Shown here: positions 1 to 40,108 of the stretch, in pieces
Numbering within the stretch: the first letter of the stretch is position 1
Layout: each line of letters opens with the position of its first letter
Source: a virus
Lineage: Duplodnaviria; Heunggongvirae; Uroviricota; Caudoviricetes
IMG/VR virus record: IMGVR_UViG_2939127364_000005
Reading direction: 5' to 3' (one strand)
Length of the DNA stretch: 46,106 nt
The notes under the pieces: generated by a model
What the model saw: the letters and a program-made list of their open reading frames with translations, nothing else
Told to the model about the DNA's origin: nothing
Database searches by the model: none
Position numbers and translations under genes: made by a program

Positions 1-585
1 CTATTCGATAATGGGTACTGTTGGCCATTCAATATCCGGTGCAGTTGATGTATCAACACGGTTCAGCAACACCCGATACTTTTTCCAGGCTTCCAGCAAC
101 AAGGTTTCTTCCTCCGTTGCGATCTCCAGATCCACAGCATCCTGAAGCGGCGCTATATGCTCACTGGCTACCTGCATCAGGCTGTTTTTTGTTTCTTCCG
201 CCTCCCGGATCCGGAACAGTTTTTCTGCTTCCGTATCCTTCACCCAGGCTGTGCCGTTCCACTTCTGATATTCCCCTCCCGGCGATAACCAGGTAACATT
301 TTCCGGTAACGGACCGAGTTCAGAAATAAATAACGCGTCGCCGGAAGCCACGTCATAAACCGTTTTACCCCGATGATCTTCAACGAGATGCCACGATGCC
401 TCATCACTGTTGAAAACAGCCACGAAGCCTGCCGGAATATCTGGCGGTGCAATATCGATACTGTTTGCTGGCAGACCTGTATGAGGCGGAATATATGCGT
501 CACCTTCACCAATAAATTCATTAGTTCCGGCCAGCAGATTATAAATTTTTATGGTCCGTGGTTGTTCACTCATTCTGAATGCCAT
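1..585 (-). CDS. tfa: Tail fibre assembly protein Tfa (194 aa), complete; stop codon at 1-3
   Basis: ORF translation matches lambda Tfa along its length as recalled ([24 protein letters not shown]...); sits immediately downstream of stf as in lambda. Confidence 0.9.
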
Positions 586-4674: not shown

Positions 4675-6808
<2,134 letters not shown>

Positions 6809-25116: not shown

Positions 25117-25350
25117 ATGTCAACGAAGAACAGAACCCGCAGAACAACAACCCGCAACATCCGCTTTCCTAACCAAATGATTGAACAAATTAACATCGCT
25201 CTTGATCAAAAAGGGTCCGGGAATTTCTCAGCCTGGGTCATTGAAGCCTGCCGCCGGAGACTGTGCTCAGAAAAAAGAGTTTCTCCTGAAGCAAACAAAG
25301 AAAAGAGTGACATTACTGAATTGCTCAGAAAACAGGTCAGACCAGATTGA
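25117..25350 (+). CDS. Small DUF3950/YlcI-like protein (77 aa), conserved lambdoid right-end ORF
   Basis: MSTKNRTRRTTTRNIRFPNQMIEQINIAL...GSGNFSAWVIEACRRRL resembles E. coli YlcI and the lambda right-end ORF as recalled. Confidence 0.7.
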   Translation: MSTKNRTRRTTTRNIRFPNQMIEQINIALDQKGSGNFSAWVIEACRRRLCSEKRVSPEANKEKSDITELLRKQVRPD

Positions 25351-25407
25351 AGCAATTTAGATAATCGTGCAGACTACGCCCCCTCATATCACATGGAAGG
25401 TTTATCT

Positions 25408-25818
25408 ATGGATCAGGTAGTCATTTTTAAACAAATATTTGATAAAGTTCGAAACGATTTAAACTATCAATGGTTTTATTCTGAGCTAAAACGTCACAAT
25501 GTCTCACATTACATTTACTATTTAGCCACAGAGAATGTTCATATTGTATTAAAAAATGATAATACAGTGTTATTAAAGGGCCTAAAAAACATTGTGTCTG
25601 TCAAATTTTCAAAGGATAGGCATCTTATAGAAACGACCTCTAATAAGCTGAAATCCAGAGAGATCACATTTCAGGAATACAGAAGAAACCTTGCTAAAGC
25701 AGGAGTTTTTCGGTGGGTTACAAATATCCACGAACAAAAAAGATATTACTATACCTTTGATAATTCATTACTCTTTACTGAAAACATACAGAGCACATCA
25801 CAAATGTTTCCACACTAA
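25408..25818 (+). CDS. YbcV-like (DUF1398) protein, conserved lambdoid right-end ORF; start taken at MDQVVIF with a GGAAGG ribosome-binding site
   Basis: ...[30 protein letters not shown]...[15 protein letters not shown] matches YbcV and the lambda right-end ORF as recalled. Confidence 0.75.
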
Positions 25819-26118
25819 ACCATAACGTCCGGTTTCTTCCACCATCGCACCGGAAAAGCGACTATGAGGGTAACCCTGCGTCTGTCAGCACAGTAAAATC
25901 CGGTGTGCATCGTTTTTGATTATTCCCGCACACTCACGCAGAAGGAATTCCCCGTCGGGCTACGGTCATGGTTAATGCGGGAATACGGCGACGATACAGC
26001 GCATGATGTGTCAGGCTTGAATACCTTTATCCGTTAAAAGGGATATCAGTTAAGTTATCCCGTGCAGGGTATAAGCCATTATCAAGCCCCCCCGTAGATA
26101 GGCTTTGTAATGACATCT

Positions 26119-26643
26119 TCAATTAATCAGCAGTTCAGGCTGTGTCACCTGCAAGATGTATTCATGCTCGACAGCCAGGACACGCTTCTCTTTCTTCCGT
26201 TCGTTCATTAACCGACTGCCGATCGTACCTTTCAGCTTTGAGCGTGTTTCTTTGATGGCGTAGCGGTGCTGCATTTCTTCGCCAATTGCCATGCGGCGGC
26301 TCAGTTGCTCTGCCATCCAGTTGAATGCTGCGATATAGCTCTCCTTGATTGCCGCAGCAGCTTTCCCGGTGAACCCCATCACAACCATGATCCAGCCATC
26401 TTTCGTCAGGCTGTACATCGGGCGAACCTTGCCCTGCTCATCGATATAATCAGCCGACGCAAAATTGCGTTGGCTAAACTCACGCGAGCAATCAGCCTTA
26501 ACCTGCTCGATTTTCCTGAGAACATCACCGTGTCGCTTGCCGAAGTACTTGGCAATTTTTCTGGATGTGGTAACGACCTCTCCGTTTTTGGCTTGCACCA
26601 TTTCTCGGAAGTCGAAGGCTGGAATAACTGAATGATTATTCAT
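26119..26643 (-). CDS. Rha-family phage regulatory protein (174 aa from MNNHSVIPAFDF; AAGG ribosome-binding site)
   Basis: N-terminal motif VVTTSRKIAKYFGKRHGDVLRKIEQ typical of the Phage_pRha domain; occupies the position where lambda has bor (on the opposite strand). Confidence 0.65.
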   Translation of the reverse strand: MNNHSVIPAFDFREMVQAKNGEVVTTSRKIAKYFGKRHGDVLRKIEQVKADCSREFSQRNFASADYIDEQGKVRPMYSLTKDGWIMVVMGFTGKAAAAIKESYIAAFNWMAEQLSRRMAIGEEMQHRYAIKETRSKLKGTIGSRLMNERKKEKRVLAVEHEYILQVTQPELLIN

Positions 26644-26985
26644 AGCGTCTTTACCTTTTAGAAAGTGAGCCTGTCTCACAGAAAAGCCGCCCGAGAGAGG
26701 TCGCCACCTATAACGGCATTTCTCAGGCTCGCTTACTGAAAGGCTCTCGTTAATATGCGCGTGAGATGCGCTGTGAAATTCAGATATAAAAAGCCCCGCG
26801 AATGCGAGGCTAAATCCTGGTATTTGTAATGAACTGGCTCTTATCTCAACGCAGCCCCTTACTGCGCGCCAGATGCTCAATATCAAGCATCAGCAATGAG
26901 ATGTTTAATCTGGATTTACTCCAGAAGTGATCACCACCCTGTCTACAGAGCCAGATGTGAAGGATGATGAGTAAAATTATCGCTA

Positions 26986-27468
26986 TCATCGAAGGCATTG
27001 CGTCCTAATGTATTCCTGAAGCGTTCTCAGTGCTGTTTGGTCGCGGATAATTCCGTCCCGGATATCGAGAACGTTTCGTCCAGCAACTGGAGAGAGTTCG
27101 ACGGTGGCATCATTGCCCATGCCGGAGGCGCTGGAGGTTTCGGCTGAGGATGGCACAGGGCATTTTCCTTTGACGAGCACCCTGCCACCATTATCAAGCT
27201 TCCGCAGAAGAGCATCATTTTCAGCTTTAGCATCAGCTAACTCCTTCGTGTATTTTGCATCGAGCGCAGCAACATCACGCTGACGCATCTGCATGTCAGT
27301 AATTGCCGCGTTCGCCAGCTTCAGTTCTCTGGCATTTTTGTCGCGCTGGGCTTTGTAGGTAATGGCGTTATCACGGTAATGATTAACAGCCCATGACAGG
27401 CAGACGATGATGCAGATAACCAGAGCATAAATAATCGCGGCGACTCTACTCACTGATCTATCCCCCAA
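26986..27468 (-). CDS. Rz: Spanin inner-membrane subunit Rz (i-spanin)
   Basis: N-terminal half (...[77 protein letters not shown]) matches lambda Rz as recalled; C-terminal half diverges. Confidence 0.85.
27027..27233 (-). CDS. Rz1: Spanin outer-membrane lipoprotein Rz1 (o-spanin), embedded in Rz in the +1 frame
   Basis: [21 protein letters not shown]... with lipobox (VAGC) and proline-rich segment [14 protein letters not shown]. Confidence 0.75.
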
Positions 27469-39871: not shown

Positions 39872-39943
39872 GTGCGGTTTTACCGCATACCAATAACGCT
39901 TCACTCGAGGCGTTTTTCGTTATGTATAAATAAGGAGCACACC

Positions 39944-40108
39944 ATGCAATATGCCATTGCAGGGTGGCCTGTTGCTGGCTGCCCTTCCGAATCTTTACTT
40001 GAACGAATCACCCGTAAATTACGTGACGGATGGAAACGCCTTATCGACATACTTAATCAGCCAGGAGTCCCAAAGAATGGATCAAACACTTATGGCTATC
40101 CAGACTAA
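39944..40108 (+). CDS. cIII: cIII (54 aa from MQYAIAGWPVAG), FtsH inhibitor
   Basis: [54 protein letters not shown] matches lambda cIII as recalled. Confidence 0.9.
   Translation: MQYAIAGWPVAGCPSESLLERITRKLRDGWKRLIDILNQPGVPKNGSNTYGYPD

Follow-up and report, generated by a model that had tools for sequence, protein, structure and literature searches.

The stretch analysed here, referred to below as the window, is the IMG/VR virus record IMGVR_UViG_2939127364_000005, which has a length of 46,106 nucleotides (nt) and represents a complete lambdoid prophage that is read in reverse, with the late genes on the minus strand. The subject of this work is the interval between the spanin gene Rz and cos, in which a gene of the Rha family (rha) is preceded by a structured RNA leader. 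A preliminary description of the sequence had given positions 26119-26985 for the Rha-family regulator. This segment does hold rha, but it also contains an open reading frame (ORF) of 50 amino acids (aa), an intrinsic terminator and the 140-nt structured leader. The features on which the following results are based are:

26811-26783, minus strand: intrinsic terminator with an 8-bp GC-rich stem and a T-run (26811-26792 plus T-run), found by terminator scan
26778-26638, minus strand: structured 5' leader of about 140 nt, the match of covariance model R1, which ends at the ATGAAT of rha
26771-26757, minus strand: P1, a short hairpin GCGC-N7-GCGC (covariation in 4 of 4 pairs, with pairing in 100% of cells over 40 sequences)
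26744-26653, minus strand: P2, a long irregular hairpin of about 33 bp in the minimum free energy fold
26643 (ATG) to 26119 (stop), minus strand: rha ORF, 174 aa, followed in order by cos
within 26119-26643, minus strand: Rha domain (aa 25-111) and one long conserved C-terminal helix (aa 94-167), from Pfam and the AlphaFold2 model

A mechanical ORF call of 255 aa starting from TTG 26886 was rejected as an artefact, because its first 81 codons run across the conserved leader and the terminator, and because both the RefSeq annotation and the covariance model favour ATG 26643 as the start codon of rha.

A structured leader upstream of rha

The covariance model R1 matched the window in a single copy with a score of 136.6 bits (E 2e-28), and the fold of the leader had a z-score of -3.2. 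The divergent copies used for the covariation analysis came from 13 annotated phage loci and from 37 loci with Rha relatives in single-species genomes. Based on an alignment of 35 distinct leaders by MAFFT only, RNAalifold predicted the core of P2, with compensatory double changes in 13 of the 17 pairs. R1 recovered 40 copies at E < 1e-12, and in the model-fitted alignment of these copies the number of pairs with compensatory changes was 30 out of 37, including 26 of the 33 pairs of P2 (helices 2-4). The percentage of paired cells was 89.5% in comparison to 35% to 46% for the slid controls, in which the partners were moved by 1-3 columns, and 0 of 500 shuffles reached the observed values. The structure was assigned to the late strand because of its G-U pairs, which were frequent (e.g., GC:25, GU:14). 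Covariation thus supports the leader as a structured RNA motif. The Shine-Dalgarno sequence of rha, AAAAGG, lies within the 3' base of P2, AAAAGGU (26659-26653).

Several unpaired sites of the leader were also conserved. In the apical part of P2 (26677-26694, minus strand) these are a GGG on the 3' side and a pyrimidine-rich apical loop of the CCUC type, and a CUGUG/CUAUG internal loop is likewise conserved across the divergent copies. It is possible that such sites are contacts for a protein or RNA partner, or that they take part in a pseudoknot.

Searches by blastn located the leader in 172 phage records and in at least 947 of 5426 complete E. coli genomes (roughly 1 in 6), where it stands before genes annotated as Rha, KilA-N or GIY-YIG. 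The host genera number at least 14, namely Escherichia, Salmonella, Klebsiella, Enterobacter, Citrobacter, Kluyvera, Kosakonia, Hafnia, Pantoea, Pectobacterium, Yersinia, Providencia, Xenorhabdus, and Gilliamella. The products of the genes behind the leader carry a Rha domain, a KilA-N domain (with ORF11CD3 or P63C), P22_AR_N together with ORF11CD3, T5orf172/MUG113, or no known domain. Genes of this kind come from the pool of 'antirepressor-like' phage regulators, shuffled in their domains, that Iyer, Koonin and Aravind reportedly described in 2002. From P1 to the start codon the window, phi80 and 2B8 share one sequence (100% identity), and the synonymous divergence (dS) of the adjoining rha coding sequences of the window and phi80 is 1.29. 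The leader of HK620 is 100% identical as well and stands before a KilA-N gene, the homology stopping at ATGAA. The copy before rha in P22 scored 117 bits against R1.

Two phages were found to have two copies of the leader each. In phi80 they stand before rha and before gene 66 (N15 gp59-like) (L007, 2366-2506 and 3960-4083). In the Shiga toxin (Stx) phage Lyz12581Vzw (L012, 153-296 and 1519-1663) the gene between R and Rz, which is of the Ant type (P22_AR_N + ORF11CD3), has one copy before it, and the Rha gene after Rz has the other.

The position of the leader also bears on the annotated starts of rha, which fall inside it in P22 orf201 (L008, 2405), in phi80 (L007, 2465), and in the 762-bp coding sequence of PhiR70_1 (L001, 2620-3381), the annotated ATG of P22 orf201 lying in the 5' arm of P2. 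The downstream starts are favoured because the covariance model and RefSeq annotation support them, and the true start of rha is thus likely to be the downstream ATG, giving 178 aa in P22 (annotated as 201 aa) and 172 aa in phi80, and likewise in PhiR70_1.

None of the families in Rfam 15 matched the leader; the best scores in 25800-27100 were 11 to 19 bits in comparison to gathering scores of 38 to 86. One part of it has nevertheless been observed as RNA. P22F is an 89-nt small noncoding RNA (sncRNA) of P22, described as 'partially overlapping ORF201, no known function', for which small RNA (sRNA) sequencing reads came only from infected cells and their vesicles and which was confirmed by reverse transcription PCR (RT-PCR) (PMC13397905, Noncoding RNA 2026). 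The P22F sequence falls on L008 2380-2468 and coincides exactly with P2 of the P22 leader, its 3' end lying 5-6 nt short of the rha ATG; in P22 at least, the leader RNA is therefore present in vivo. Beyond that report, the covariation-supported P1 and P2, the spread across genera, and the link to swappable cargo genes are new here. The leader is an uncatalogued RNA family of a known kind, that is, a structured 5' leader or a processed sRNA.

Two alternatives for the leader have to be considered in light of these results. The first is that its conservation is a matter of DNA alone, the sequence serving as a linker for recombination or as a boundary in module exchange and having no function as RNA. 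Phage homology does stop right at the start codon and also at the Rz 3' end, and 100%-identical leaders do stand before unrelated genes. However, the pairing in divergent copies has been kept by compensatory double changes in 30 of 37 pairs, strand-specific G-U pairs are not required of an element acting only as DNA, and a stable RNA has been seen in P22, so that we regard this explanation as very improbable. The second alternative is that the leader acts mainly in trans, as an sRNA of the P22F type which the late transcript releases, instead of regulating rha in cis. The accumulation in P22-infected cells and vesicles of an RNA equal to P2, the conserved CCUC-type motif in the apical loop, and the constancy of the motif while the downstream gene varies all agree with such a role, whereas the motif always ends within a few nt of the start codon with the Shine-Dalgarno sequence included in its 3' arm, the 3' end of the leader has no terminator of its own, and no target is known. 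A predominantly trans-acting leader is in our view possible but less than likely, and a trans role and a cis role of the leader are not mutually exclusive.

The rha gene and its product

The profile search for Phage_pRha gave a match of the 174-aa protein to PF09669 with E 2.2e-28 and 99.1 bits against a cut-off of 29.9, spanning residues 25-111 and profile positions 1-90 of 91. The protein also matched TIGR02681 (E 3.8e-33, 113.8 bits against a cut-off of 45.95) and phrog_518, 'Rha-like transcriptional regulator' (E 4e-78). Together with the gene order, these Pfam, NCBIfam and PHROG matches confirmed the initial view that a Rha-domain protein of 174 aa is encoded on the late strand downstream of Rz.

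In tblastn searches of phage genomes, the window Rha was 100% identical to the 'Rha protein' of phage phiv205-1 and shared 73.4% amino-acid identity with phi80 Rha over residues 1-173 (tblastn), while its identity with P22 Rha (orf201) was about 37% to 40% (37% by tblastn). A 1251-bp stretch around rha is 100% identical in E. coli 2009C-3133, in which RefSeq gives a 'Rha family transcriptional regulator' of the same length. Full-length homologues of 171 to 183 aa were found across Enterobacterales, and the ratio of nonsynonymous to synonymous substitution rates (dN/dS) of rha was 0.05 to 0.17 for ten relatives where dS was not saturated. Given this usual length and these dN/dS values, a pseudogene was ruled out, and a truncated rha, considered in view of the match to only positions 2-170 of the 268 profile positions of phrog_518, was rejected on the same grounds. 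Judged by its sequence, the window rha is intact and under purifying selection.

The arrangement around the gene is shared with the classical members of the family. The annotated late-strand order of phi80 is Rz/Rz1, a putative terminator and rha, and the phi80-derived prophage of E. coli EPI300 has the same gene order as phi80; in P22 the order is gene 15/Rz1 and then rha. Among 80 IMG/VR viral contigs with the same Rha, Rz was found upstream wherever the contig reaches that far. These comparisons identify the window gene as a phi80-type rha orthologue, similar to phi80 Rha over the full length including the C-terminal tail, in the classical position after Rz/Rz1. The rha gene here is an ordinary, already annotated gene and not an unusual cargo.

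In the AlphaFold2 model (mean predicted local distance difference test score, pLDDT, 81), the N-terminal domain has the order beta-beta-alpha-alpha-alpha-beta-beta-alpha and is followed by a single helix of residues 94-167, and the top Foldseek matches, which were weak, were all winged-helix regulators (PadR, MarR, TFE). Among 32 homologues the C-terminal 60 residues were more conserved than the Rha domain, with the tail nearly invariant, and no Pfam match was obtained for the C-terminal 70 aa even at E values up to 10, so no extra C-terminal domain was recognized by Pfam. Because this single helix is conserved above the Rha domain and has no Pfam family of its own, the model suggests that it may form a protein-protein interface. 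Residues from about 105 to 174 correspond to 26119-26331 on the minus strand, and the predicted helix of 74 residues is conserved across genera. A C-terminal domain of the ORF11CD3 type, which is found in other genes of the slot and in a fused Salmonella relative (P0044), was considered and is absent here. None of the PADLOC defence-system models matched Rha, the 50-aa ORF or the DUF1398 and DUF3950 proteins.

It may also be asked whether Rha is a true antirepressor, made late, that inactivates CI-type repressors of its own prophage or of co-resident ones and thereby speeds or locks induction. Related PHROGs carry the label 'anti-repressor', by annotation only; the same slot alternates with P22_AR_N/Ant and KilA-N proteins, and the conserved C-terminal helix suggests a protein-protein interface. 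In addition, Stx phage Phi24B requires a late-region Ant for pR' to be fully expressed during induction (PMC3064807). On the other hand, PF09669 was the only Pfam match of the window Rha, with no ANT (PF03374), AntA or P22_AR_N domain found, and the sole known genetics of Rha is an inhibition of phage growth in hosts deficient in integration host factor (IHF), which is not an antirepressor phenotype. We consider a true antirepressor a possible reading, though an unlikely one.

As to that phenotype, P22 rha is a gene of the late operon (PMC4936722), and the same source, citing Mozola & Friedman 1985 and Henthorn & Friedman 1995, states that phi80 Rha and the protein encoded by late-operon P22 rha block phage growth in IHF-deficient hosts. 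The phi80 record carries the note 'DNA synthesis inhibition in IHF- hosts' on rha. According to Henthorn & Friedman 1995, IHF consensus sites are said to flank the rha start codon. No exact IHF consensus site was found near rha; a site with one mismatch lies just inside the rha coding sequence in the window and in P22, and none does in phi80.

The interval between Rz and cos

The neighbouring genes and signals, in late-strand order and then beyond rha, are:

29804-29229, minus strand: Q-like gene, first in late-strand order
29165-29010, minus strand: tRNA-Asn(GTT) and tRNA-Thr(TGT), between the Q-like gene and the holin
28891-28676, minus strand: P21-type holin
27983-27450, minus strand: lysozyme
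27468-26986, minus strand: Rz i-spanin (Pfam Phage_lysis, E 2e-31)
27233-27027, minus strand: Rz1 lipoprotein, embedded in Rz
26998-26846, minus strand: 50-aa ORF with a hydrophobic N-terminus (phrog_11822, E 2e-37)
25963-25989, plus strand: homologue, now degenerate, of the HK629 promoter annotated before bor, found by alignment and pointing to the 3' end of rha
25393-25818, plus strand: DUF1398 gene (YbcV-like; Pfam E 1.7e-46), convergent with rha
25117-25350, plus strand: DUF3950 gene of the YlcI-YnfO family (Pfam E 5e-21 and NF041551)
24728-24183, minus strand: Nu1, after cos, with TerL (large terminase subunit) next

The place of the two tRNAs between the Q-like gene and the holin is a frequent tRNA position in Stx and other lambdoid phages. 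The 50-aa ORF overlaps the stop codon of Rz by 13 nt and is the equivalent of Sf6 gp65 and epsilon34 gp67; it is annotated in RefSeq, in PhiR70_1 and as epsilon34 gp67. It is an optional mini-module, missing from phi80 and 2B8 and present in about half of the 80 viral contigs with the same Rha, and may encode a small membrane protein tied to lysis. The DUF1398 and DUF3950 ORFs that had been noted beyond rha are both present by Pfam, with the correction that their strand is the plus strand and not that of the late genes, an orientation that matches their homologues in lambda-type phages; the DUF1398 gene has about 80% nucleotide identity with its lambda-type homologue.

Comparison of the locus across lambdoid prophages showed that the interval from Rz to cos is a mosaic slot with alternative occupants, which are bor on the opposite strand in lambda/HK629, a KilA-N gene in ev099 and HK620, a T5orf172/GIY-YIG-like gene in HK106 and epsilon34, and Rha in the window. 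In pairwise comparison, homology was lost over 26004-27208 against the lambda-like HK629 and over 26113-26992 against ev099, which has its KilA-N gene on the late strand, while against phi80 and 2B8 only the segment with the 50-aa ORF (26812-26992) was extra in the window. From these losses of homology, the exchange of cargo at the site is real, and the block 26119-26985, earlier proposed as exchanged cargo, nearly matches the exchange block against ev099; what does not hold is its likeness to a moron of the bor type. Nor is there a notable cargo swap, since publications on phi80 and P22 placed rha from the outset on the late strand, right behind Rz. A junction of 29 bp (26993-27021) at the Rz 3' end has 86% to 93% identity with phi80, ev099 and 2B8 while its flanks diverge, and recombination seems to use it as a junction when the module downstream is exchanged.

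The preliminary description had started from bor, which in lambda-type phages stands after Rz on the opposite strand, and this was seen to be so in HK629. It would then be conceivable that Rha is a lysogenic-conversion moron in place of bor, expressed in the lysogen as host or prophage cargo. The slot is indeed the one where lambda has its lysogen-expressed bor, the exchange block against ev099 encloses the gene, and a late-region ant is weakly expressed in uninduced lysogens of Stx phages (PMC3064807). The transcription signals argue the other way. The gene is on the late strand, no site upstream of it reached 9 of the 12 consensus positions of a sigma-70-like promoter in a scan by consensus matching, which is a crude method, and a strong intrinsic terminator lies immediately 5', between the lysis genes and the structured leader; in phi80, epsilon34 and HK106 the annotation gives the homologous hairpin as a terminator. 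The homologue of the bor promoter has kept its position and is degenerate, TGGACA being changed to CGGTCA and TACAAT to TACGGC, and the window Rha has no homology to the Bor lipoprotein. Moreover, P22 and phi80 share the arrangement, and rha is regarded as a late-operon gene there (PMC4936722), and the leader RNA of P22 was detected only in infected cells (PMC13397905). A bor-like moron is accordingly improbable, and we infer that rha belongs to the Q-dependent late operon and is not a lysogenic-conversion gene.

Three further RNA elements were found elsewhere in the window. Matches at the level of the Rfam gathering scores were obtained for the IS009 RNA (222 bits, 44-242, minus strand) and the Hfq-binding sRNA isrC (150 bits, 5627-5749, plus strand), both located at the tail-gene/tail-fibre end of the prophage. 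At 39931-39989 (plus strand), the lambda cIII thermoregulator element was matched with 88.5 bits, in keeping with an early left operon of the lambda type.

Interpretation and comparison with known systems

The explanation we favour, and hold to be highly probable, is that the window carries the standard rha gene, orthologous to that of phi80, in its canonical place downstream of Rz/Rz1 in the Q-dependent late operon of a lambdoid prophage. For the functions of the protein and of the leader we infer the following course. Transcription of rha would depend wholly on read-through of the terminator by Q-modified RNA polymerase, and rha would therefore be a late lytic gene and not a gene of lysogenic conversion. 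The leader would partly occlude the ribosome-binding site and so keep the translation of a dose-sensitive DNA-binding protein low in a very strongly transcribed operon, and its processing may release a stable P2 hairpin RNA as with P22F. At the DNA level, the leader and the 3' end of Rz could serve as homologous linkers for the exchange of cargo modules. Rha itself is most likely a dimeric regulator of the winged-helix type that binds DNA or a repressor late in infection, its candidate roles being to lock in lytic growth as an antirepressor would or to interfere with phages that compete with it. An excess of Rha would harm the phage, which may be what is seen as the classical Rha phenotype of phi80 and P22 in IHF-deficient hosts.

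Some points weigh against this explanation. A non-canonical promoter overlapping the terminator may exist. The perfect identity of the leader in the phage pairs described above could reflect recent recombination and not constraint, and an alignment fitted to the model leans to the model's own structure. The outermost pairs of P2, including the Shine-Dalgarno sequence, are the least consistent ones and are unpaired in up to 17 of 40 copies, and the occlusion of the ribosome-binding site is partial, with a mean pairing probability of about 0.55 in the ensemble for positions -14 to -5 relative to the ATG.

A broader proposal can be built on the same observations, which we offer tentatively and consider doubtful as it stands. 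The terminator and leader together would be a portable riboregulatory cassette of temperate enterobacterial phages that gates whichever antirepressor-like gene is plugged in behind it (Rha, KilA-N, Ant or T5orf172). The gate would answer a signal acting in trans, which might be a host factor, RNase or phage sRNA, and a stable hairpin sRNA of the P22F type would be released as well. The phenotype of phi80 and P22 Rha in IHF-deficient hosts, described 40 years ago, would in that case stem from misregulation of this gate and not from the binding of IHF to DNA close to the start codon.

The rha gene itself has little significance, and the main value of its analysis lies in the correction of the idea of a bor-like moron. 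The leader is of wider interest. It occurs in roughly one-sixth of complete E. coli genomes and in the model phages phi80, P22, HK620 and epsilon34 and Stx phages, always before a swappable set of putative regulator genes, and it is absent from Rfam. Through it, P22F, an sncRNA of no known function, gains a structural and evolutionary context, and the annotated start codons of rha are corrected for P22, phi80 and PhiR70_1. It also provides a testable handle on the low dosage and the exchange between phages of late-operon regulator genes.

Among known systems, the closest is phi80 rha (JX871397, PHI80_62), the founder of the Rha family, which is alike in its position on the late strand after Rz/Rz1 and the terminator and has a leader identical to that of the window from P1 to the start codon. 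Phi80 differs in lacking the 50-aa ORF that the window has between Rz and the terminator, and downstream it has ORFs 63-66 where the window has the lambda-type DUF1398/DUF3950 genes. P22 rha (orf201) shares the Rha domain and the C-terminal tail, the late-operon place after gene 15/Rz1 and the leader motif; it differs in its podovirus backbone (P22-like) and in its Rha, which is only about 37% to 40% identical. Lambda bor occupies the same interval as the window rha, between Rz and the DUF1398 gene. It is, however, a lipoprotein gene on the opposite strand with its own promoter and expressed in the lysogen, none of which holds for the window rha, for which expression is deduced from the sequence. 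The KilA-N, P22_AR_N (Ant) and T5orf172 genes of the slot, that is, HK620 hkbK, ev099 gp69, Stx-phage Ant, HK106 gp64 and epsilon34 gp68, share with the window the strand, the cassette of terminator plus leader and the small size of the products (140 to 260 aa), while they differ in their N-terminal domains, and several have ORF11CD3 or P63C C-termini that the window Rha does not have.

For the leader, translation-occluding mRNA leaders are known from the RNase III hairpin of the lambda N leader, to which the rha leader may be analogous. P2 of the window is the homologue of P22F, a transcript known from the P22 copy only; its report covered a single phage with an Mfold picture, and its authors noted identical copies in some other phages (PMC13397905). 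The same authors likened P22F to IsrK of Gifsy-1, also a structured RNA directly before a regulator gene and able to mask the ribosome-binding site (PMC13397905). The leader has no sequence or covariance-model similarity to isrK or to any other Rfam family.

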